Shown: positions 3,556-25,346 of the stretch, piece by piece
Position numbering within the stretch: position 1 is the first letter of the stretch
Layout: each line of letters starts with the position of its first letter
Sequence record: CP103806.1
Length of the DNA stretch: 35,072 nt
Source of the DNA: Clostridioides phage Hain-Saunders-2022a
Reading direction: 5' to 3' (one strand)
Position numbers and translations under genes: made by a program
The notes under the pieces: generated by a model
The model's input: only the letters and a program-made list of their open reading frames with translations
Databases searched by the model: none
What the model was told of the DNA's origin: nothing

Positions 3556-3998
3556 TAAATCCCCCCTATTTCCCAACTTTTCATATTTACACTACCAAAA
3601 TCATGTAAAATTATAGAGTTTATATTTATAACATCACTATACAGATTTTCAAGCATTTTTATTGTCTTTCCATTCTTGCTATCTATATCAAAATCAATAG
3701 AACCTTTTGCAATCTTATCATTATTATTAAAAGTAAAATACTTTCCTTTTTCAGCAATATCAAGCCTTTCAAATTCCTTAGGCTCGATATATCTCTTACC
3801 TTCTGAGTCAACTAAAAAAGGGATAATTATTTTAACGCTATCAGCGCTTATTATCCCTTTATCTGTTACATTTATATTCTGTTGTCCTTGCCAGTCAACT
3901 CCTGTTAAATATGTCTTAAAGTATTCATTTATCCCAAGTTCTTTATTATAACAAGCATTATATAAAGTTATATTATCTTTAAAGAACATGCTAAACAC
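3555..3998 (-). CDS. head closure / neck protein
   Basis: 147-aa ORF in the neck block. Confidence 0.45.
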   Translation of the reverse strand: MFSMFFKDNITLYNACYNKELGINEYFKTYLTGVDWQGQQNINVTDKGIISADSVKIIIPFLVDSEGKRYIEPKEFERLDIAEKGKYFTFNNNDKIAKGSIDFDIDSKNGKTIKMLENLYSDVININSIILHDFGSVNMKSWEIGGI

Positions 3999-4323
3999 CT
4001 CTATACAATAATTCCGAGTCTAAATACATTTTTAAAATATCATATGCCTTTTGTTCTACAGTCTTGTTATTAGCTGTATAAGTCACGGAATGACTACCAA
4101 CACTTTCCGATTGTATTTCCTTATCACCTTCCAAGCTACTTTTATATATAAGGTCTGCAATTTCACATGTAGTTATTTTTATATCTTCTGTAATTTCTTT
4201 TATCCTGCCAAAAGTATTATAATCTATATATTTAGTTGCTCTTATTGCGTATCTATCAAAAGAACCTTGGGGGATTTTTCCCCCAAAGCCACTATAAAAT
4301 TCATAATCAATATATGTTTTCAT
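3991..4323 (-). CDS. head-tail connector (gp6-like adaptor)
   Basis: 110-aa ORF immediately downstream of the major capsid gene. Confidence 0.5.
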   Translation of the reverse strand: MKTYIDYEFYSGFGGKIPQGSFDRYAIRATKYIDYNTFGRIKEITEDIKITTCEIADLIYKSSLEGDKEIQSESVGSHSVTYTANNKTVEQKAYDILKMYLDSELLYRGV

Positions 4324-8773: not shown

Positions 8774-10102
8774 CTATTCATATTTGATAAACTTAGTTAT
8801 ATGTTTTTCTATTGAGTATTCAAAAGCGTCTAATGTATCAATATCACTAGAGCCATCATCAAGTCTTACATTTTTAGTAATCTCTTTAGAATCCCAAACA
8901 GCACTACATAAAGCAATTTCTAAAGTCTTGCAATCATCAGTATATTTAAAACGTCCTTGTGCCATAAGTCTACTTACAAGATTAATCCTATCATTTATTG
9001 CACTTTTATAAGCATTTACTATTTTCAACCAGCCAAGACCATTTTTTTTAGCTGTAGAACGTAATCCACGAATTAGCACTTGCTCGGCACTATCACAATA
9101 GACGCAAGTTATAGAACCATATACATTTACTATTTTCAAACAAAATTCTACAAATAAAAGACCCAACTTATCCGGGTCTATTTCTCCGAAATGTCTTTCA
9201 CTCGAAAGCGCAATAACATCTCTGCAGCCTCTTGTAATCCCTGTAGCCACAAAGGAATGCCCCGAACCAGTTCCCCCAAAGTCTACGCCTATATTTATCT
9301 CCATCAAACCACTAATTTTTTCTTTTATATTAAATTCTTCTCTATTATCTGCAAATAGTCTATATATAAGCCCTTCCGCAACGCAACGCTGACCTAATAT
9401 ATCTCTCTTATACCAAATAGAACCAACATCATATTGAGTTAGAATTTCCCGTTTACGTTCTTCTGTGACGGTTATATTGTCATTTATGGTAAAATGCTGA
9501 TAATTATAACCACCTATCAATTCACCACTTTCGTTTTTCTCTTTATAATTGTCTATATACTCTGTATAAATAAAAGAGTTAGGATTATCGGGGTTTAAAT
9601 CCCAAAATATTTTACGATTGGTTGATGCTATAATTCTATTAAAAGCCTCTTTTATCGTTTTATCATGGTGTAGATTTATTTCTGTTGCTATCCACATTCC
9701 ATACGAGTTACCCCTTATTTTCTTATAACTATCAGCCTTAGCACCTCCAGCAAAAATAACAATTTTTTGCTTATGTTTAGTTGAAATACCTTTTATATAT
9801 AAGCACTCATTACCTTTAAATTTTCCCCAATGACATTGACCACGAAAAATATATTCAAGTCCAAAACCGTTAGCGTCTCCAATATTAAGTTTTGCATTTG
9901 CGCTTGTAGACCCTGTTGCTAGATGTATTTTATCTTTAGATGTCTTTATTTCATGCGCAAAGGCAAATACATTGTCTACTGTCTTACCTGCTCTAACTGC
10001 TCCCTCTGCAATATTATAAGTATTACTAGCACAACACTTAATATATTCTTTATGTTTATCTCCAAATTTAAAAGGTATAGTTTTCTTCTTAGTTACTGTC
10101 AT
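8774..10102 (-). CDS. terminase large subunit (PBSX/XtmB-like, probably headful packaging)
   Basis: 442-aa ORF with an N-terminal ATPase region (GAVRAGKT, Walker-A-like) and a C-terminal nuclease region. It overlaps the TerS stop. Confidence 0.9.
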   Translation of the reverse strand: MTVTKKKTIPFKFGDKHKEYIKCCASNTYNIAEGAVRAGKTVDNVFAFAHEIKTSKDKIHLATGSTSANAKLNIGDANGFGLEYIFRGQCHWGKFKGNECLYIKGISTKHKQKIVIFAGGAKADSYKKIRGNSYGMWIATEINLHHDKTIKEAFNRIIASTNRKIFWDLNPDNPNSFIYTEYIDNYKEKNESGELIGGYNYQHFTINDNITVTEERKREILTQYDVGSIWYKRDILGQRCVAEGLIYRLFADNREEFNIKEKISGLMEINIGVDFGGTGSGHSFVATGITRGCRDVIALSSERHFGEIDPDKLGLLFVEFCLKIVNVYGSITCVYCDSAEQVLIRGLRSTAKKNGLGWLKIVNAYKSAINDRINLVSRLMAQGRFKYTDDCKTLEIALCSAVWDSKEITKNVRLDDGSSDIDTLDAFEYSIEKHITKFIKYE

Positions 10103-10796
10103 AGATTTCCGCCTCTATATCCTCTATATCCTCTATTTCTAAGTCATTTCCAGTCAATTTATTTGTTTTTGCTTTTATCTGCTCTATCCTGCTCTTTTGT
10201 TCTTCTGTTGCTAATTCCCAATTTTTATGAAGTAGTTCCTCATAATCTTTTATCATCTTTGTTAGAGTTTTAAAGGCTGTCGCCTGTGCCTTCATAGCAT
10301 TTGTGACTTTATCCCAAGAATGCTGAACTTGATACTCTTTAAATTTATCCCCACTTTTTACAATGTCAACAGTATGGTCTTTTTTATTTTTAACATGAGT
10401 AGTTTTAAAAGATTTTAATATATTTGCATACTGAATAACTATGCTGTTCCAAAGTATATCCAAGGAATTACAACCATCTTTTTCGATATACTTAACTATT
10501 TTGTAAGTATCAGCAGGTAAGTGCTTAGATAAAAAACCATGTGTGCGTGCATTTTGATTGCCTGCTGGAGCGCCCCCTTCATGCCCTAACGCATTTTGAT
10601 TGCCTGCTGGAGCGCCAACCTTCTTATTTATACCTAGCTTATAATCCCATCTATCAACTTTTTTCCAGCGACTAATGTTGCAACTCTTTTCATCTAGCGT
10701 TTTAGCAATATCAACTAATTTTATTTTCCCATTTTTTTCTTTATAAATCTCAAACGCTTTTCCTCGATTGGAATTTTCTATTGAAATGCAAATCAA
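10089..10796 (-). CDS. terminase small subunit
   Basis: N-terminal HTH (KLVDIAKTLDEKSCNISRWKK) plus a duplicated GAPAGNQNA motif, typical of Firmicute phage TerS. The start is apparently TTG at 10796, because an in-frame TGA lies just upstream. The RBS is GGAG. Confidence 0.75.
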   Translation of the reverse strand: MICISIENSNRGKAFEIYKEKNGKIKLVDIAKTLDEKSCNISRWKKVDRWDYKLGINKKVGAPAGNQNALGHEGGAPAGNQNARTHGFLSKHLPADTYKIVKYIEKDGCNSLDILWNSIVIQYANILKSFKTTHVKNKKDHTVDIVKSGDKFKEYQVQHSWDKVTNAMKAQATAFKTLTKMIKDYEELLHKNWELATEEQKSRIEQIKAKTNKLTGNDLEIEDIEDIEAEIYDSN

Positions 10797-10824
10797 CTCC
10801 TTTCAATAAAAAAAGACCAGTCAA

Positions 10825-11394
10825 CTAGTCTTTTTGTTTTCGCTTTGCTCTTTGCAATGTACTCTTACTAATCCCTGTCATGCTCTCTACTTGCGTATAA
10901 GAATTAGTTTTTAATAACTCTAAAGCATGTTCTATTTGCGTCTTAGTATATTTTTGAGGTCTGCCCTCTCTAAAATTAGGATTTTGTTTCGCTATCTCCT
11001 TACCTGCAAAAGTTCGTTCTAAAATTAAATTTCTTTCCATTTCTGCAACTGCAAGTAAAGTCGTTATAAAAAACTTACCAAGTGTAGTATTTTCTAAAAG
11101 CCCCACATTAATTACATGTACTGAGATATTAGCATTAAATAAACTTTGTATAAGATTAATTCCTTCTGTTGCATTTCTTGCAAGTCTATCTAATTTAGTT
11201 ACAACTAATTTATCTCCCTCTTGCATTTGCTTAACCATTTCATCAAATACAGGTCTATGTGTTGTTGACCCTGTAAATTGTTCTCTAAATATTTTAGCAT
11301 CACTATAATGTTTTCTTATTTCCTGTTCTTGTTGCTCTAAACTATTATTATCAATTTGTACTTTACTGCTTACCCGACAATACCCAAATATCAT
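10825..11394 (-). CDS. small serine recombinase (resolvase/invertase family)
   Basis: ORF 10825..11433. The likely start is ATG at 11394 ([13 protein letters not shown]..), which places the catalytic Ser in YCRVSS. It has the resolvase-fold motifs ([11 protein letters not shown]) and a C-terminal HTH ([14 protein letters not shown]). RBS GGGGGTG. Confidence 0.85.
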
Positions 11395-11879
11395 AAAAAT
11401 ACACCCCCACTTTTGACTACGAGTTATGACCACCTTCTATATGTTCATTTTACTACATAATCAAATCGTAGTCAATACTGTACAGTTTTGAATACGGTGA
11501 ATTTTTTTAAATGAATCAAAAGTACCTATAAGTATTGTTATTACTCTTATAAAAAGGTGTAATTGAATTGTTTCCATGTGAGTTTTGCCTTTTTTGGTGC
11601 ATCAAACTCTTTTTTTTACTTTCCAACCACAATGTTTTATTTTTGTAATCTTAACGCTATAGTTCGTGTTAGCTTCTAAGCTTCACCATAGCCATTTTAA
11701 CGTTAAATAGCTTCTACCCCAGTATTTATAATGGCTAACGCCTATTTTAACGAATATGGGGTTTTCTTAGAGAATCAGACATTCACTTTTTACTTTTCCT
11801 ACTTTATATATAGCGAAAAAAATGTATTGAATGTATAGGTCTTTATTTTTCCAACATTCAAAAAGACAAAATAAAAAAA

Positions 11880-12488
11880 TCACCCTATTAGGTCGTTTAA
11901 AAACATGCTATATTCTTGATATTGTTCTTCATTAAGTCCTAGATACACTTTAGTTTCTTCTATGCTAGAATGTCCAAGCATTTCCTTAACCCTTACAATA
12001 TCGAATCCACTTTCTTCATATATGGTATGAGCGTATGTTTTACGCATACTATGCGCAGTTATATGTTTAAGCCCAAAGTATGCGCCAGCTTCTTTCAATA
12101 TCACTGTTACTCTCTCAACACCTATGTATGGAGTAACTGATTTCTGCCTGGATGGGAACATGTACTCATAATCCTTCTTGTCTCGGATATAGTTTTTGAG
12201 TACTCTTTCTAAGTTAGGAATTATCGGAGCTTTTCTAGGCTTTTTATTTTTCTTTCTTATGTTCTTAGTCTTTTCTTTCTTACTCTCCATTATTAAGAAA
12301 TAACCTTCGTCTAACGCCTTTCTAACATCTCTTACCTGGAGTTTAACCAAATCCCCCGCCCTATATCCTGTTCCTATTCCCAATACAAATAGAACATAAT
12401 TTCTAATATTCTTTTCTTTTAAATATTCTTGTATATTTAAAGCCATATTTTTATCTTTTATGGGGTTTGCTGGTCTTTTTGTACCCAT
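11880..12488 (-). CDS. minimal tyrosine recombinase (catalytic domain only, FimB/Xer-sized)
   Basis: 202 aa. It has the R (GTGYRAGD), H-x-x-R (HSMRKTYA) and H...Y (LGHSSIEETKVYL) catalytic residues. RBS AGAGGGTGG. There is no N-terminal arm-binding domain. Confidence 0.85.
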   Translation of the reverse strand: MGTKRPANPIKDKNMALNIQEYLKEKNIRNYVLFVLGIGTGYRAGDLVKLQVRDVRKALDEGYFLIMESKKEKTKNIRKKNKKPRKAPIIPNLERVLKNYIRDKKDYEYMFPSRQKSVTPYIGVERVTVILKEAGAYFGLKHITAHSMRKTYAHTIYEESGFDIVRVKEMLGHSSIEETKVYLGLNEEQYQEYSMFLNDLIG

Positions 12489-12640
12489 TTATCGCCACCC
12501 TCTTTTTTACTTGCCATATGCCTATTTCTTGCTTTTATATAATTCTTATGCCTTGTGTTTCTTTCACCTTCAAGGTATTCTTCTGATTGCTGTTCATATT
12601 TATTTATTGCCTCGCTGGCATCTATCCAATTTTTACCCAT
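12458..12640 (-). CDS. small highly charged protein; possible recombination directionality or accessory factor
   Basis: 60 aa with a strong RBS (AAAGGAGGAAATA-ATG). It overlaps the tyrosine recombinase start by 31 nt in another frame. Confidence 0.5.
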   Translation of the reverse strand: MGKNWIDASEAINKYEQQSEEYLEGERNTRHKNYIKARNRHMASKKEGGDKWVQKDQQTP

Positions 12641-12654
12641 TATTTCCTCCTTTT

Positions 12655-12692
12655 CAAATAAAAAAGTCTTGTATCTAAAAAATACAAGACTT
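12655..12692 (-). terminator. intrinsic terminator (11-bp perfect stem AGTCTTGTAT/ATACAAGACT, U-tract on the minus strand)
   Basis: Inverted repeat at 12664-12692 flanked by an A-run (plus strand), which gives a U-run in the minus-strand RNA. It lies downstream of the late-regulator gene. Confidence 0.6.
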
Positions 12693-12812
12693 TCAAAAGG
12701 GGACTAACTTTCTATATTTAATTTTCAATGTTCATTTTCTTCCATAATACAATTATAGACCTTTAAAAAAATAAATTGGTGTGTAGCATGTGTTTTTTGT
12801 GTCAACTACTTG

Positions 12813-13262
12813 TTAGTATTTAAAAATTGAAAGCATTTCAGATAATTTTCCTAACGCACTATCAAGTTTTTTATAAACATTCCATCTACAACAATTAACT
12901 TGTGTTGCTATTTTAGTCATTGTCATTTTGTTATTTACATCATAAAAATATTTTAACCTTATAATTTCTCTTTCATCACTTTCTAATTCTTCCATATATG
13001 AGTAAACAATTTTTACCCTTTTCTCTACATATTCAATTTCTGACTCTTTTAATAGAATTTGTTGCTCTGAATTAATAATCATATCATCCAGCCCCTTCGG
13101 GCTTGTCTTTATCTTAAAACCTAATTCATTAAAATTAATCTCGCTATATTTTTCACTTTCTTTCAAAATGGCAATCTCTTTTTTTAATATATTGATTCTT
13201 CGCTTCCTATCTCCCAAATCATTCAAATAGCGACCAGTTTTTTTTATTCTTTCCTTATCCAT
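12813..13262 (-). CDS. late-gene transcriptional activator (sigma-70 region-4-like / ArpU-type)
   Basis: ORF 12813..13274 with a GGAGG RBS before the ATG at 13262. The C-terminal HTH (REIIRLKYFYD..MTMTKIATQVNCCRWNVYKKL) resembles sigma region 4. It lies immediately upstream of the packaging genes. Confidence 0.6.
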   Translation of the reverse strand: MDKERIKKTGRYLNDLGDRKRRINILKKEIAILKESEKYSEINFNELGFKIKTSPKGLDDMIINSEQQILLKESEIEYVEKRVKIVYSYMEELESDEREIIRLKYFYDVNNKMTMTKIATQVNCCRWNVYKKLDSALGKLSEMLSIFKY

Positions 13263-13273
13263 AAAAACCTCCA

Positions 13274-14245
13274 TTACTCACTTTCAAAATTCATATATTT
13301 TAAAACTTTCCCAATACCTAACTCATCCATGCAATATTTGTGCAATGTAGGATGACTTTCTTTTAACATCTGAAAACGATTAGGCGTCGTGTCATAAGAA
13401 AGCCCAAACATGCAATAAATACACCCTGTACGTTTACATAAAGTAGTTCTATACTCTTCCTTAAAATCAAGACTACTATCTTTTACAACTTCCCCATAAA
13501 TTTGTGCAATAGGTAACTTATTGATGTAAATATACTCCAATATATCTTGTTCAGTCCAAAAACTAAGAGGAGCAGAGAGCGGTCTCTTTTCATCAAAGGA
13601 ATTACAACCATTTTTTAAATATTTTCTTTTTCTAATAGAACTTTCTTCCGCTAGAGTTCCAACAATGCCCTTTAGACCTGTTTCTTTTTCAAATTTTTCA
13701 AAAGGTTGTTTTTTCATAATATCACAACATTTATCTGAAATTTTAAAAGGAGCATCAACCAAATAACGCCACTTTTTAGAAATAATAAACTGACTCTTAG
13801 TGCCATCTTTATTAATCCCATATAGGTGCTTATTTATTAAAACTTCACTTTTAGAGTTTCTAACTTTAGATATGTAATGACTTTGTTCTTTGCTGACAAC
13901 TGGATAACCATACTTTTCTATAACATCTTTAAAGGACATTTTAGGTCTTATAACTATTACATTTTCTTTTGTTTTTACAAATCCCTTTAGTTCCGGATAT
14001 TCCAGTCCTGGGTCGCAAAAAACTGCTGGAATTTCTTTATATACTTGTCTAGCAATATCTAAAAGAACAGTACTATCCTTACCGCCACTAAAACTAACAT
14101 AAACATTGCCCTGGTAACGGTCATACCATTCTCTAATTCTTTTTTTAGTTAGTATTATTTTTGCTTCAAGGGGCAATGATTGTTTTTGCTTCAAGTACCC
14201 TTCTTTTAACTTTTTCAATTCTTCCTTGGAATAATTAATCTCCAT
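13274..14245 (-). CDS. PAPS reductase / DndC-like PP-loop ATP pyrophosphatase family protein
   Basis: PP-loop SFSGGKDS motif and a C-terminal Cys cluster (CKRTGCIYC). The likely start is the internal ATG (MEINYSKEEL..), not the far-upstream one. Confidence 0.8.
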   Translation of the reverse strand: MEINYSKEELKKLKEGYLKQKQSLPLEAKIILTKKRIREWYDRYQGNVYVSFSGGKDSTVLLDIARQVYKEIPAVFCDPGLEYPELKGFVKTKENVIVIRPKMSFKDVIEKYGYPVVSKEQSHYISKVRNSKSEVLINKHLYGINKDGTKSQFIISKKWRYLVDAPFKISDKCCDIMKKQPFEKFEKETGLKGIVGTLAEESSIRKRKYLKNGCNSFDEKRPLSAPLSFWTEQDILEYIYINKLPIAQIYGEVVKDSSLDFKEEYRTTLCKRTGCIYCMFGLSYDTTPNRFQMLKESHPTLHKYCMDELGIGKVLKYMNFESE

Positions 14246-14391
14246 GATTCCCTGCTCCTTGCTTCTCTTTTTTGTATTTAGTTTTGCATTTCCTGCAACA
14301 AAAATTTTGCTTTGATTTAAATTCTGTATAAAATAACTTACCACACCATGAACAAATTCGCCTTACTCGCACTATATAAGCACCTTCTTTA

Positions 14392-19108: not shown

Positions 19109-19550
19109 TATGTACACATTTATTTTTTAGTTTTTTTCCTTAAGTATAAATAAATAATTTCTAATAATTCTCTATCCCCAATCGAATCTATCATTTTTTT
19201 TATTTCTTCTTTCAAATCAATCATCCCCCTATATATATTAGTAGAATAATACATTCTTAAATTGTAAAAAAATAACTTACAATTTCAATTATACCCCTTT
19301 TTGTTCGATTGCACAAGAACATATGTACGATTTTTTGTCGTAATTAATTCTTTATACTACAATAATAGTACCTTTTATCGGATTTTGCTAGTGGAAAATA
19401 ATTCCAATTCAAAATACATTGAATTTTCTTGCATTAAAAAATCGTAGGGTCAAATTTTCTAATCTTTTATTTAAGAAGTAATATAGCTAAATAGGCATTT
19501 TAAAGTATTATATCTTAGTTATTTTTTAGTTTAACTGGTTAATTCTTATC

Positions 19551-19614
19551 AAAAAGTCAGTCGAGTAGGAATTTATATATATATATATATTAAATCCTAC
19601 TCGACTGACTTTTT
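19551..19614. terminator. hairpin 1 (20-bp perfect stem AAAAAGTCAGTCGAGTAGGA / TCCTACTCGACTGACTTTTT, (TA)9 loop), bidirectional terminator-like
   Basis: Read directly from the sequence. An A-run precedes it and a T-run follows, so it would terminate transcription from either strand. Confidence 0.6.
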
Positions 19615-19785
19615 GTTCTTAGATGCAAATTTCTAGTTGCTCTATTAATTCAGTTTCTTTTTCAATTTTAAGTTCCTTATCTAGTTCTTTATTTAAGAAA
19701 CAATGTAGTTAAATAGCAACTTTGAAGTATTTTTCAAATATTATATCTTAGTTATTTTTTTGTTTCAACTGGTTAATTATTATCA

Positions 19786-19854
19786 AAAAGTCAACGGGTC
19801 TGACTTTAATATATATATATATATATATACTAAAATCAGACCCGTTGACTTTTT
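19786..19854. terminator. hairpin 2 (19-bp perfect stem AAAAAGTCAACGGGTCTGA / TCAGACCCGTTGACTTTTT, (TA)11 loop)
   Basis: Read directly from the sequence. The stem sequence differs from hairpin 1, but base pairing is fully preserved. Confidence 0.6.
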
Positions 19855-20021
19855 GTTTAGATGCAAATTTCTAGTTGCTCTACTAACTCTATTTCTTTTT
19901 CAATTTTTAAGTTCTTTATCAAATTCAATAGTTAAGAAACAACTTAGTTAAATAGGCACTTTGAGGTATTTTTCAAATATTATATCTTAGTTGTTTTTGT
20001 TTTAACTGGTTAATTGTTATC

Positions 20022-20085
20022 AAAAAGTCACGGGGTTAGGAATTTATATATATATATATATTAAATCCTAACCCCGTGACTTTTT
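20022..20085. terminator. hairpin 3 (20-bp perfect stem AAAAAGTCACGGGGTTAGGA / TCCTAACCCCGTGACTTTTT, (TA)9 loop). This is the terminator of the helicase gene.
   Basis: It starts 3 nt after the helicase stop codon (20088) on the minus strand. The U-tract is UUUUUGAU. Confidence 0.7.
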
Positions 20086-20087
20086 GA

Positions 20088-22325
20088 TTAAATACAGATT
20101 TCTAATTGTTCTGTTGACTCTGCTTCTTTTTCTTTTTCAATTTTAAATCCTATATCAAATTTATTGTTTAAAAATGCTTTTTCAATTTCATCTAATCGGT
20201 TTAACAACTTTTGTTTTCTTGTGCTTATAGCATTTCTTAAACTTAAATCATTTTTTTCCAATTTTAAATCCTTTTCTATATCCTCTATTTTTATATATCT
20301 TTCAATCTTGTTTATTCGCATCCTGTCATTGTCTATAAATTCAATATCGGGCTTATTGTTCTTGTAATATGAATAATTTTCTAACGCTTCAAAGTTTCTG
20401 TGTTGCTTGACTTTCACTACAAATATATTTTTTAAGATAGTTCCTAGTTTAGTGGTTGTTAACTTCCAATCATCTCCTAGAATTATACCTAAATCGTTAC
20501 TTAACTCTTGTAAATTGCATTCTGTATAAGCTGTTCCAACACCAAATAATTTGTCTATGTAGTTATATGCAACAACTTCTATTAAGTTATCATTTAGCAA
20601 ATTTGGATGTTCTTCTTTTAACTCTCTGTAGATGAGATTATTTATTTTATTAAATATATTACCTCTCTTATTGTTGCCCATGTTGGCAAGTTTCCAGGAT
20701 AACCCTAAACTATAGTTATGTTCAAGTACATATTTAGAAAATAGTTCAATTTCGTTGTAACAGTCCGCTTTGTCGATTAAATAATCTATATTATACTTAA
20801 TGTGTGCCTGCTTATAATCGTCCTCTGTTATTTTATTATAATTCATATAGGTCATTAGGTTAAAATCCTTAGAACCCCTTTTAATTTGCTCGTAGCCAAC
20901 TAGATATTTTTTGTTTTCTTCTAAAGTTTTTAATGTAGCTTTCTTAATTTCTTTTAAAACTTCTTTGTATTCTTTTATTTGCTGTGTTGTTTCTTGACTT
21001 TGTTCCTCTATATTTTCTATTTTTACATCTTTGAAATATTCTTCTAAAAGCACTTTTAAGCTTGCGATACTTCTACTATCGTAATATCTCGAGTATGTGT
21101 TACTTATAATGAATAATTTATCTATTTCATAGCATTTATTTTTAATAGAGTAATATACATTAGAGTCAAGGCTGAAAGGCATAAGGTCTATTCCGACTGT
21201 TTCAAATCCCGTTACCCTTTTGCTGTTTAATTCGTTATATAACTCTTTTAATTTGTTTGCTCTTTTAAAATTGATTTTAATTATGTCATTAACTTTGTAG
21301 ACTTTATTGTTTCCTTCTGTTTCTTTGAAATTGTTAAAAATATGCACTCTCACACGTTTCAAATCTCTAAATCTTGCAACATACTGTTTTATTGTCGCAG
21401 GGTCTTTGAACCCAACTATCACAATATCAGTTATGTCTTTATTTTTTATATTGACACCTGCCAGAATTGTTGTTGTATTTAGTAGTACTTCATATTCTTT
21501 CATGTCTGAGTGTTGTATTATTCTTTTGTACAATTCGCTTTTAATCTTAATATCTGCATGAACAATATCACTTTTTTTTGTTGTTAATTCATCTATATAT
21601 TTTAAATCTTTTTTACTGTTATAAAGAACAGCGCTATTTTTAGATTTGTTAAGAATTTCTATTATTTTATCTTTATTTATATTGTCATAAAGCCTTACAT
21701 CATATTTAGTATTTTTTTCTTTTATATACTCTATTATGTAATCATAAATTTCAAATTCCAGCTTAGTTGGTGTTGCTGTTATATCTATTCTGCCTTTACA
21801 TTTATTTACTACATTGTTGAGATTTTTTATTGCTTTTTTCCTATAAGAATCTGTGTAGGTCTGATGTATTTCATCAACAACAATTATGTAATCACTTAAA
21901 TCTATGTTTAATAATTGTTCTGTTTTATCCCATGTCATGACTGCTAGGTTTCCAGTTTTTAATGCTTTTGTCGCAGGAAGTAAGTCATATGCACCTGGTA
22001 CATCATATTCCTTCATAGCCTGTTCTACATTCGCACTGTTTGGCAATATAAATAATGCTTTTGTATTCATTTTTTTAAGCGCATTTATGAAACTATAACT
22101 TTTACCTGTTCCAGTTTCTGCAATTAACAGAACCGTCTCTCCTGCTCCTGCTCTTGCTATTGCGTTATATATTCCACTCTTTTTTTCATCTATATATTTT
22201 TTTATTTTATGCGTTTCTTGTCTTTCAAATTTTGCGTAATTTTCTATCTCTCCTAGCGCTCTTTCTAAGTCGCAATCATTTTCAAATAATTTATCTATAT
22301 TATTTTTCTTAACTTTTTCCATCAT
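20088..22325 (-). CDS. SF2 helicase (DEAD/DEAH-like ATPase core, ~350 aa) fused to a ~400-aa K/N/Y-rich C-terminal domain of unknown function
   Basis: Walker A (AETGTGKS), DEIH box (VVDEIH) and a motif-VI-like QYVARFRD. RBS AAGGGGGA. It stands alone between the repeat array and the accessory island. Confidence 0.85.
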   Translation of the reverse strand: MMEKVKKNNIDKLFENDCDLERALGEIENYAKFERQETHKIKKYIDEKKSGIYNAIARAGAGETVLLIAETGTGKSYSFINALKKMNTKALFILPNSANVEQAMKEYDVPGAYDLLPATKALKTGNLAVMTWDKTEQLLNIDLSDYIIVVDEIHQTYTDSYRKKAIKNLNNVVNKCKGRIDITATPTKLEFEIYDYIIEYIKEKNTKYDVRLYDNINKDKIIEILNKSKNSAVLYNSKKDLKYIDELTTKKSDIVHADIKIKSELYKRIIQHSDMKEYEVLLNTTTILAGVNIKNKDITDIVIVGFKDPATIKQYVARFRDLKRVRVHIFNNFKETEGNNKVYKVNDIIKINFKRANKLKELYNELNSKRVTGFETVGIDLMPFSLDSNVYYSIKNKCYEIDKLFIISNTYSRYYDSRSIASLKVLLEEYFKDVKIENIEEQSQETTQQIKEYKEVLKEIKKATLKTLEENKKYLVGYEQIKRGSKDFNLMTYMNYNKITEDDYKQAHIKYNIDYLIDKADCYNEIELFSKYVLEHNYSLGLSWKLANMGNNKRGNIFNKINNLIYRELKEEHPNLLNDNLIEVVAYNYIDKLFGVGTAYTECNLQELSNDLGIILGDDWKLTTTKLGTILKNIFVVKVKQHRNFEALENYSYYKNNKPDIEFIDNDRMRINKIERYIKIEDIEKDLKLEKNDLSLRNAISTRKQKLLNRLDEIEKAFLNNKFDIGFKIEKEKEAESTEQLEICI

Positions 22326-24206: not shown

Positions 24207-25016
24207 ATGGCTGATACAAAATTAATTGTATTTTTCAATACAAAAGGCGGGATATATAAGACGACTACAACTATTATGACGGCATACGAACTTGCAAAAG
24301 ATAAAGATAAAAAAATTCTTCTTTGGGACTTAGATCAACAGGCAAATTTAACTCAATATGTTTATAAAACTAATCACGATAAAAAGACTACATTAGATAT
24401 GTTAAAAGACGTTAGGGCTGAGGAAATTATTATTAAATCTTTTAATAAATCTTACCCAAATATAGATTTAATAGCTTCCGACATTTTGATGGCTAAATTT
24501 GAAAGAGAATTATTTTCTTTCCCAGCTCGTGAACAATTTTTGGCTCGCTGGTATATGAATAATTTTGATGTATTAAGTGAATATGATTATATATTTTGCG
24601 ACTTATCTCCTAAATATGATTTGACGGCTATGAATGCTTTATTTTTAGCTGATAGTGTAGTTATTTTAATTAAAGATAAAAATGTTTCTAGCTTAAGAGG
24701 GGCAGATTATTTTAAGCAACTTTGGGATATAGATAGAAGTTATTTTAAAAAAGAGGATAATATAAAAGCAACAGTTTTAGTCGGCTTCGAAAAGAAAAGA
24801 ACGGCGGTTAGCAACACATTTGATTCTTACTTAAAAGAGTTTAATGTTTTAAGGAATATGATGTTAAATACATATATAAGAAAAAATGAGTTTATTGAGC
24901 AAGCATTAATGAAAAAATTATCTTTAACAGATTATACAAAAATAACTAAAGAGCATTTTAGTAGACAAGAGTTTACTAGCATGTTAGAAGAATTAAAAGA
25001 AAGAGGTGTGTTATAG
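24207..25016 (+). CDS. parA: ParA/Soj-family partition ATPase (deviant Walker A)
   Basis: KGGIYKTTTT deviant Walker A near the N-terminus. 269 aa. RBS AATGAGGTG. Confidence 0.9.
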   Translation: MADTKLIVFFNTKGGIYKTTTTIMTAYELAKDKDKKILLWDLDQQANLTQYVYKTNHDKKTTLDMLKDVRAEEIIIKSFNKSYPNIDLIASDILMAKFERELFSFPAREQFLARWYMNNFDVLSEYDYIFCDLSPKYDLTAMNALFLADSVVILIKDKNVSSLRGADYFKQLWDIDRSYFKKEDNIKATVLVGFEKKRTAVSNTFDSYLKEFNVLRNMMLNTYIRKNEFIEQALMKKLSLTDYTKITKEHFSRQEFTSMLEELKERGVL

Positions 25017-25346
25017 ATGCCAGTATTCAACAAAGACCTTTTAGAAGAAAAAGAAAAGCCACTTTTGAAAAGTGGTACAGTTGGGCAGGAAAATATTATT
25101 TCTACGGATAGCGATAAAACATTAAGTATATATAATCTAGTTAATAAGAAAAGTAAAAAAGTAACTATGAGTGCAACACTAGACAAAGAGCTTGTAGACA
25201 AGTTGAAGTCTCTTGCAATAGACTTAGATAGTGATGTAAGTAAAATATTAAGTGATATGTTAACAAAGCTTTTATATGATGTAGATGTAAAAGAAGAAAA
25301 TTTAATCGCTTATAATGAAAGAAGAAAGACAAAGAATAATAAGTGA
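25017..25346 (+). CDS. small ribbon-helix-helix centromere-binding protein (ParG/ParB-like partner of ParA)
   Basis: 109-aa ORF that starts at the parA stop codon. The C-terminal RHH-like segment is KKVTMSATLDKELVDKLKSLAIDLDSDVSKILSDMLTKLL. Confidence 0.65.
   Translation: MPVFNKDLLEEKEKPLLKSGTVGQENIISTDSDKTLSIYNLVNKKSKKVTMSATLDKELVDKLKSLAIDLDSDVSKILSDMLTKLLYDVDVKEENLIAYNERRKTKNNK

Follow-up and report, generated by a model that had tools for sequence, protein, structure and literature searches.

Two small recombinases and their predicted sites between the late-regulator and terminase genes of a phiCD38-2-like Clostridioides phage

Introduction

What would a phage do with two small site-specific recombinases encoded side by side, between the gene for its late regulator and the genes for its terminase? 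We address this question for Clostridioides phage Hain-Saunders-2022a (sequence record CP103806.1), whose 35,072 nucleotides (nt) we refer to as the window. It encodes a small serine recombinase and a minimal tyrosine recombinase, separated by a spacer (coordinates of all features are in Table 1). The gene pair itself is already known: it is annotated in all relatives and tabulated for phiCD38-2 as "one Xer-like tyrosine recombinase; small serine recombinase" (PMC8026635, Table 1 of that paper). In the literature searched, we found neither a described function for the tyrosine enzyme nor a functional study of either gene. What is new here is the modular structure of the spacer, a Sin-type res upstream of the serine recombinase and conserved twin sites for the tyrosine recombinase, none of which is categorically new. 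We consider it probable that the locus consists of two independent, portable recombination cassettes placed back to back around the packaging start and the late-promoter region.

Results

Each recombinase appears to travel with its own noncoding DNA

The recombinase pair occurs in identical order in every Leicestervirus and in diverged viral contigs, and its adjacency is not a chance co-occurrence. The window resembles different relatives over different lengths. A Clostridioides difficile element, CD160 (loci L004 and L050, which are the same), has in common with the window a 60-amino-acid (aa) open reading frame (ORF), the tyrosine recombinase and 175 bp of spacer: homology spans 13400 down to 11705, where it ends in mid-spacer, and beyond this point the CD160 element carries an unrelated 203-aa serine recombinase. 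Homology to the phiCD38-2 group, in which the late regulator differs, runs from 12503 down to 10002, its upper limit being at the start of the tyrosine recombinase gene (breakpoint interval 12493-12736); phiCD146-type homology (92%) picks up again at 12736. Identity also varies along the spacer itself. Positions 11705-11879 are 95-97% identical to relatives (100% to the phiCD38-2 group over 11722-11796), both recombinase coding sequences are 87-91% identical to relatives, and 11600-11704 is ~55% identical to phiCD38-2. From the CD160 switch point and this identity profile, we infer that the spacer is modular and that each recombinase travels with its own stretch of noncoding DNA.

The spacer has several further features. 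Between 11650 and 11760 lie CGTTAAAAT(A/G)G-like repeats, a perfect 12-bp palindrome (TTTAACGTTAAA) and two copies of TAGCTTCTA, as well as a GAAGCTT at the cassette junction that is kept in all Leicesteriviruses. Any of these motifs may serve in recognition by terS or as part of pac. The annotation of phiCD38-2 places a 35-aa "hypothetical protein," gp54, within the spacer (719-826 of the phiCD38-2 locus), but this is probably not a gene, as it lies where the mid-spacer is poorly conserved and the window lacks an equivalent. An Rfam scan of 10700-12900 gave one sub-threshold chance match and no known RNA family in the spacer. We also considered an invertible spacer, flipped through a 17-nt inverted repeat (11491-11507 and 11873-11889), and rejected it: the repeat is degraded in phiCD38-2, and relatives with an inverted spacer were not found.

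The serine recombinase gene is preceded by a Sin-type res

The listed ORF for the serine recombinase begins at a GTG (10825-11433), and an ATG at 11394 is preceded by GGGGGTG. This ATG is almost certainly the start, giving a protein of 189 aa as annotated for gp55 of phiCD38-2. The original prediction of a serine recombinase of ~190 aa with a catalytic YCRVSS motif and a C-terminal helix-turn-helix (HTH) was correct: the Pfam Resolvase match covers residues 15-151 of the 202-aa ORF (2.8e-32) and is followed by the HTH, and the alignment of the protein with Gin and Tn3 resolvase extends over its full length and places the YCRVSS serine in register with Tn3 Ser10. It therefore has the catalytic domain with a Y-x-R-V-S serine and the C-terminal HTH that characterize small serine recombinases (PF00239).

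Directly upstream, we identified a putative res of 90 bp in total (11407-11496), in which an AT-rich gap of ~32 bp separates the inverted-repeat site I from the tandem half-sites of site II. The predicted promoter of the gene, which is the top sigma-70 match of the region (10 of 12 positions), begins inside site I. We compared this arrangement with 16 serine recombinase homologues from viral contigs (49-66% identical). The layout of inverted-repeat site I, -35, -10, tandem site II, ribosome-binding site and ATG stands upstream of 15 of the 16, TTGAC lies inside the right half-site in all homologues examined, and the half-sites of site I and site II change in step among the homologues. An inverted-repeat site I, a gap and a direct-repeat site II within 86-90 bp upstream of the gene is the organization of a Sin/beta-type res. 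The beta recombinase and six site of pSM19035 form a resolution system comparable to Sin/resH, and the role of Sin itself, on Staphylococcus aureus plasmids, is plasmid dimer resolution. The Sin res likewise lies upstream of its gene; its 86 bp comprise site I, a site for the bending protein and a site II made of direct repeats (PMC2428073). In contrast to Sin, the cassette here resides in a phage, beside terS and the putative pac, and its enzyme is nearer in sequence to Gin or Tn3 resolvase.

This last point raises the alternative that the serine recombinase is a Gin/Hin-type invertase, flipping a segment elsewhere (for example the tail-fibre genes) to give phase or host-range variation. Gin is indeed the top match among solved structures (Gin 6.8e-22, Tn3 2.8e-18, Sin 4.4e-13), both PHROG and RefSeq label the protein "DNA invertase," and the half-site core TCAAAAC resembles hix/gix half-sites. 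However, the full dyad is present once in the window and once in the complete 41-kb genome of phiCD38-2, weaker matches being at the level of shuffled sequence, and neither genome contains the second crossover site in inverted orientation on which Gin, Hin and Cin act. We found no long inverted repeats flanking any coding segment of the window. The single dyad and the lack of such repeats make an invertase role improbable despite the match to Gin, and one dyad per genome favors a resolvase instead. In addition, a tandem-repeat accessory site beside the dyad is a feature of resolvases, and homologues of the enzyme are common on small plasmids: the 1546 plasmid records with a homologue include many small plasmids unrelated to phages, among them some in which the gene is annotated as a resolvase. 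Among ~56 loci with the tyrosine enzyme, a serine recombinase is adjacent only on plasmid-sized contigs (22-42 kb) and never on contigs >100 kb.

We conclude that the serine recombinase is a putative autoregulated multimer resolvase of a plasmid prophage and not an invertase. A role in multimer resolution had been anticipated, and the Sin-type res, the single dyad and the plasmid homologues make it the best reading for this enzyme. In the proposed mechanism, modelled on Sin, enzyme dimers occupying both sites of res would act with a DNA-bending protein of the host to bring two directly repeated copies of res into synapsis. The reaction would turn a dimer of the plasmid prophage into monomers and so help ParA-driven segregation, and resolvase bound at res would also repress its own promoter. 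If so, one evident way to cure or stabilise prophages of the phiCD38-2 group would be to target the resolvase and its res.

The tyrosine recombinase is a catalytic domain and not the integrase

The tyrosine recombinase had been described as minimal and devoid of an arm-binding domain, and our analysis bears this out. Pfam Phage_integrase (PF00589) covers residues 19-187 of 202 (4.7e-20), the protein aligns with residues 118-269 of an archaeal Xer recombinase, and an AlphaFold model (predicted local distance difference test score 85) consists of a single domain that matches XerA, the Brujita integrase and Cre, with a structural match to MrpR as well. The residues R43, K70/71, H146, R149, H173 and Y182 are invariant in 121 family members, so that the R-K-H-R-H/W-Y set of tyrosine recombinases is complete in a catalytic-domain fold. 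Both the arm-binding and the core-binding domains are absent, ~18 residues preceding the catalytic domain, and the enzyme thus lacks the N-terminal domain that forms the core-binding clamp of Cre and Xer. We speculate that a small ORF found upstream of the gene in many loci may supply the core-binding function in trans.

The enzyme belongs to a family of 573 proteins (E <1e-5), nearly all of 198-208 aa and with PF00589 alone; it matches the phrog_216 profile (2e-62), and the JD032 paper labels the family YoeC-like. The location of the gene, which had been thought unusual, proves to be regular among phages of Clostridium, Bacillus and Streptococcus. In ~55 loci from many Clostridia, the gene comes directly after the late activator or replication genes and before (HNH)-terS-terL, and 190 phage records carry it, including Sherbrookeviruses, Bacillus phi105 and phIS3501 and Streptococcus 315.1. 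Both the profile match and this slot between the late activator and the packaging genes define the enzyme as a phrog_216 small "integrase." The p22 "second integrase" of phIS3501, its counterparts in phi105, BtCS33 and Streptococcus 315.1, and ORF003 ("YoeC") of JD032 are of the same family and occupy the same slot; identity to the enzyme of the window is 34-38% for the Bacillus and Streptococcus phages and ~61% for JD032. Phages of the phIS3501 type differ in the arm sequences of their sites and have no adjacent serine recombinase.

Two integrated loci rule out that the small enzyme is an integrase. In one Clostridium chromosome of 2.69 Mb, the prophage (L096) encodes a canonical 385-aa integrase at one end and the small enzyme before its packaging genes, and the tyrosine cassette runs uninterrupted within a 352-kb contig (L049). 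Unlike a lambda-type integrase gene, therefore, the small gene and its sites stay contiguous with terS/terL in integrated prophages. Because the 385-aa integrase coexists with the small enzyme in the Clostridium chromosome, the small enzyme is not the integrase and the cassette is not plasmid-specific. The proposal that neither recombinase of the window is a classical integrase is supported by these separate integrases and by the missing arm- and core-binding domains. The homologue in JD032 is a middle gene expressed with HNH and terminase, from which its authors inferred a tendency to integrate (PMC7205517); the present data do not support that interpretation. The authors of the phIS3501 study called the role of the "second integrase" unclear (PMC3335513). 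As a caution, a gene for a small tyrosine recombinase is a poor marker of the ability to integrate.

Two conserved sites bracket a promoter-like element

Between the stop codon of the tyrosine recombinase gene and the repeat-rich part of the spacer lie two palindromic elements, sites 1 and 2, which are the sole elements of this kind in the window and in phiCD38-2. Both have the make-up of a Cre/Xer core site, in which inverted arms surround an asymmetric centre over 28-35 bp (35 bp for site 2 and 33 bp for site 1). Of 50 related loci, 49 have site 2 (family consensus TGAATGTgTGATTCnCTAwrwAAATnnnACATTCA), with distance and orientation unchanged. From centre to centre, the sites lie 76 bp apart here and 76-83 bp apart in 37 loci, leaving 42-49 bp between them. 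The promoter-like element occupies this interval; the right arm of site 1 covers part of its -35-like hexamer, and site 2 stands just downstream of the -10-like TATATA.

The arms change with the enzyme. In phiCD146, whose enzyme is 31% identical, AAAATGC-N19/20-GCATTTT occurs twice (0.01 matches expected by chance), and phIS3501 has two palindromes with AATTACCCA arms downstream of its recombinase; loci L087 and L089 carry matched changes in both arms. This co-variation of arm sequences with diverged enzymes marks the palindrome arms as predicted binding sites of the tyrosine recombinase. Arm mismatches in site 2, looked at to tell an RNA hairpin from a DNA palindrome, had no bias towards sense-strand G-U pairs (10 against 7) and favor neither form.

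Two sites that bracket a promoter-like element, next to a gene for a FimB-sized enzyme that has no N-terminal domain, recall a FimB/RecV-like invertase, which the original prediction had raised as a phase-variable switch. Inversion of the promoter segment would then switch the serine recombinase and the late operon ON or OFF. Although FimB/FimE and RecV resemble the tyrosine enzyme in being ~200 aa long and essentially catalytic domain only, the enzyme here shows no family-level match (NCBIfam NF007370, 21.8 bits, E 1.1e-4, against a cutoff of 221 bits), and neither an invertible segment nor an orientation polymorphism is seen: 49 of the 50 loci, which come from many species, agree in the orientation of the segment, and just 42-49 bp separate the sites. 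Furthermore, the central regions of sites 1 and 2 differ, so strand exchange between them is not expected. Since the centres differ and the segment is inverted in no locus, we reject such a promoter switch as very improbable. Flipping of the host cwpV switch by phage recombinases is likewise already negative in the literature, as phiCD38-2 does not flip this switch in a recV mutant and so is no substitute for RecV (PMC5386303).

Our leading ideas for the tyrosine enzyme are instead Cre-like action on replicating DNA and control of a promoter. Most likely, it would act in lytic growth, binding and probably recombining at its sites on replicating phage DNA. This could interconvert monomers and multimers in the manner of Cre/lox, control the promoter next to the sites, or do both.

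One alternative is that the tyrosine recombinase is a second multimer-resolution system, Cre/lox- or Xer/dif-like, which would make the two enzymes redundant resolvases. The lox-sized site adjoins the gene and each site occurs once per genome, the ParA-bearing phage phiCD506 has the tyrosine enzyme as its sole recombinase, and other plasmid prophages have a Cre-like enzyme, D6 with a small serine recombinase too (PMC8026635). On the other hand, the same cassette is found in integrated prophages that have a canonical integrase, the homologue in JD032 is a middle lytic gene expressed with terminase (PMC7205517), and the Leicesteriviruses add a dedicated resolvase with its own res. We therefore hold this alternative to be unlikely. 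That the pair forms two independent resolution systems, one of the options put forward originally, is doubtful given the presence of the tyrosine enzyme in chromosomally integrated prophages with a normal integrase.

Another alternative, which we judge somewhat less likely still, is that the protein has a tyrosine-recombinase fold but acts mainly as a DNA-binding regulator of the late/packaging promoter, like MrpR (YopR), the master repressor of SPbeta. MrpR is not known to be an active recombinase, whereas the enzyme here retains invariant catalytic residues, including the tyrosine nucleophile, in 121 sequences, which is unexpected for a pure DNA binder; moreover, the promoter is a prediction. 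The placement of site 1 over the -35-like hexamer and of site 2 just past the -10-like TATATA would suit a regulator, as would the centre of site 2, which is kept across genera, and the constant position of the gene after the late activator. MrpR, also from a Firmicute phage, uses the tyrosine-recombinase fold at palindromic sites near promoters, and it matches the enzyme structurally (PMC10516654).

Packaging may start between the two cassettes

In phiCD146, the fixed pac terminus was mapped with PhageTerm to 40603 of NC_028958 (PMC5557969). This position is between the genes for the tyrosine (39725-40369) and the serine (40887-41507) recombinases, 90 bp beyond site 2. It aligns with a conserved island in the otherwise variable mid-spacer of the window (11598-11626), which is kept in all four Leicestervirus sequences aligned and is our candidate for the pac cleavage region. 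If the assignment can be transferred from phiCD146, pac would lie between the two cassettes in the window as well, and the order along the direction of transcription would be tyrosine recombinase sites with promoter, pac, res, serine recombinase, terS. We speculate that res would then sit 100-200 bp inside the pac end and be duplicated in the terminal redundancy of first-headful DNA, by analogy to lox of P1.

The comparison with P1 extends to other features. The serine recombinase of P1 is Cin, a tail-fibre invertase, whereas the serine enzyme here is resolvase-like. P1 Cre has a core-binding domain that the tyrosine enzyme here lacks, and the tyrosine cassette, in contrast to those of P1 and D6, is also found in integrated prophages. 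The proximity of a recombination site to pac, however, is shared with P1, and both P1 and D6 are plasmid prophages that package by the headful and carry a tyrosine and a small serine recombinase (for D6 and P1 Cre, PMC8026635).

Evidence that weighs against the proposed roles

Several findings count against the assignment of two separate roles to the two cassettes. We observed no recombination product, inversion or deletion; the site assignments rest on sequence conservation, and the recombination reactions, like the promoters and pac, are predictions, whereas the sites themselves, the degree to which they are conserved, the way they co-vary with the enzymes and the number of copies are shown directly. 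The serine enzyme is nearer to Gin than to Sin in sequence and bears the PHROG label of an invertase. ParA-bearing Sherbrookeviruses such as phiCD506 have the tyrosine enzyme alone, which therefore could itself be a dimer resolvase, weakening the proposed division of labour. The centre of site 2 is conserved across genera, which recombination alone would not require and which hints at a promoter or regulatory role. Finally, the position of pac is carried over from phiCD146 through a weak alignment.

Small ORFs upstream of the tyrosine recombinase

The ORF of 60 aa upstream of the tyrosine recombinase had been proposed as its strongly translated partner. It does overlap the start of the recombinase (by 31 nt) and has a strong ribosome-binding site (AAGGAGG), but strong translation was deduced from that ribosome-binding site only. 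Scans of Pfam, PHROG and NCBIfam-type profiles gave no family match for the ORF, which is confined to a few lineages (the window, CD160, similar Romboutsia loci and phiCD146). In phiCD146, its equivalent is joined in frame to the N-terminus of the recombinase, with 48% identity across 25 aa. Relative to the closest relative, the CD160 element, the ORF has 1 synonymous and 15 nonsynonymous codon changes, compared with 41 and 10 in the recombinase. A partner function is thus not borne out: the ORF is lineage-specific, its codon changes give no sign of purifying selection, and it is at best a positional analogue of uncertain coding status. A programmed frameshift joining it to the recombinase was rejected, as a TAA stands in the recombinase frame just before the ATG and the overlap contains no slippery heptamer.

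Other loci do have a recurrent small upstream protein. A small ORF abuts the recombinase start in at least 25 of 54 loci, and 18 such ORFs share the C-terminal sequence ...ECMxHxxYKRxxGAIRQVR, often behind a CxxC...CxxC zinc ribbon. Small proteins of this family, whose stop codon abuts the recombinase start, are encoded, for example, at 3754-3999 of locus L014 and 9775-9996 of locus L095, as well as in L016, L072-L077 and others. The 60-aa ORF was tried as a member of this YKRxxGAIRQVR family and rejected, since a hidden Markov model of the tail scores it no better than shuffled sequences.

Taking these elements together, we tentatively suggest, as a possibility that we favor less than not, that the small tyrosine recombinase is the core of an undescribed lytic-cycle module of many temperate Firmicute phages, made up of enzyme, partner and clamped promoter sites. 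If this were true, a catalytic-domain-only recombinase would act with two lox-sized sites that clamp, at fixed spacing, the first promoter of the packaging operon. In many loci it would have a very small partner whose translation is coupled to its own; this partner is often a zinc ribbon with YKRxxGAIRQVR at its end, and in phiCD146 it is fused to the enzyme. Such a module would link a reaction on the DNA of replicating genomes, either monomer-multimer interconversion or site-specific nicking-closing, to the onset of late transcription and packaging. The "second small integrase" after the late activator has been noted, unexplained, in Bacillus, Streptococcus and Clostridium phages; the conserved twin sites, the coexistence with a real integrase and the expression of a homologue with terminase now allow an experiment to be designed. 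For work on C. difficile phages, testable candidate cis sites are now at hand for both recombinases of the phiCD38-2 group, among whose members are phages that change the expression of toxin and CwpV and are maintained as plasmids.

Identity of the phage and gene order

By Megablast, the closest relatives of the region are the C. difficile siphophages phiCD38-2, phiCD111, CDSH1, slur17 and AR1075-1 of the genus Leicestervirus, and the region also matches three C. difficile plasmids of 41-42 kb. These phages have the same genes in the same order and spacing (gp53 and gp55 in phiCD38-2; 87-91% identical), but their late regulator is 49% identical to that of the window, which in addition has the 60-aa ORF. 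The window is a phiCD38-2-like Leicestervirus and a plasmid prophage; its sequence is probably that of the entire circular genome, which would be ~6 kb shorter than those of its relatives. A plasmid prophage had been suspected from the outset, and three observations support it: the window encodes a ParA-type ATPase (24207-25016; 24207-25346 with a small partner), along with a CI-like repressor; no integrase turned up among the ten early-region ORFs of the window that were scanned against Pfam; and phiCD38-2 was the first C. difficile prophage shown to be extrachromosomal and plasmid-borne (PMC6127314).

All genes of the locus, from terL to the late regulator, are on the minus strand (Table 1). 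The three originally listed ORFs (serine recombinase, tyrosine recombinase and 60-aa ORF) were confirmed there, as were their neighbours, the sigma-like regulator on one side and terS on the other.

Table 1. Positions of genes and predicted elements of the recombinase locus in the window.
Feature	Position	Strand	Remarks
terL	8774-10102	minus	
terS (small terminase)	10089-10796	minus	Directly downstream of the serine recombinase, same order in relatives; Pfam Phage_terminase 7.5e-09
Serine recombinase (predicted resolvase)	10825-11394	minus	189 aa from ATG; Pfam Resolvase 2.8e-32 and HTH
Spacer	11395-11879		485 bp
Putative res site II	11407-11434		Tandem half-sites TCATAACT (11429-11422) and TCAAAAGT (11416-11409), 13 bp apart; abuts the ribosome-binding site
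Predicted serine recombinase promoter	11447-11475	minus	-35 TTGACT (11475-11470) within site I; -10 TAAAAT (11452-11447)
Putative res site I, proposed crossover site	11467-11496		30-bp dyad CGTAGTCAATACTGT / ACAGTTTTGAATACG, centre TA
Conserved island, candidate pac cleavage region	11598-11626		In variable mid-spacer; assigned by its alignment with phiCD146 pac
Repeat-rich stretch	11650-11750		CGTTAAAAT-type repeats, palindrome TTTAACGTTAAA, GAAGCTT; holds the cassette junction near 11700
Site 2, predicted tyrosine recombinase site	11751-11785		35-bp lox-sized palindromic element, TGAATGTCTGATTCTCTAAGAAAACCCCATATTCG on the minus strand; 0.18 matches expected by chance
Promoter-like element between the sites	11786-11827	minus	A-run, TATATA, AGTAGG; kept in related loci; predicted promoter
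Site 1, predicted tyrosine recombinase site	11828-11860		33-bp palindromic element TGAATGT-N19-ACATTCA; begins 19 nt past the stop codon
Small tyrosine recombinase	11880-12488	minus	202 aa, catalytic domain only; phrog_216
60-aa ORF	12458-12640	minus	Overlaps the recombinase start; ribosome-binding site AAGGAGG; coding status uncertain
Intrinsic-terminator-like hairpin	12662-12694	minus	After the late-regulator gene
Sigma-like late transcriptional regulator	12813-13274	minus	Weak Sigma70_r4 (Pfam); phrog_36 1e-19; TIGR02937 1e-09

Three observations concern neighbouring regions and other phages. The Sherbrookevirus myophage phiCD506 (NC_028838; 22071-22880 and 31987-32547) encodes a ParA-like protein, and its only "integrase" is the catalytic-domain-only recombinase; Sherbrookeviruses may be plasmid prophages too, or may integrate by other means. 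Upstream of the late regulator, the window has a gene for a 356-aa protein with a PAPS-reductase domain (13274-14344), of which phiCD146 has short pieces alone (residues 1-45 and 331-354, at 2415-2628 of the phiCD146 locus), therefore a deletion remnant in that phage. Lastly, three large, near-perfect palindromes (CAAAAAGTCA...TGACTTTTTG, with (AT)n centres) lie at 19548-20088, adjoining the upstream end of a gene for a 745-aa helicase (20088-22325); this array may be a replication origin or a partition site.

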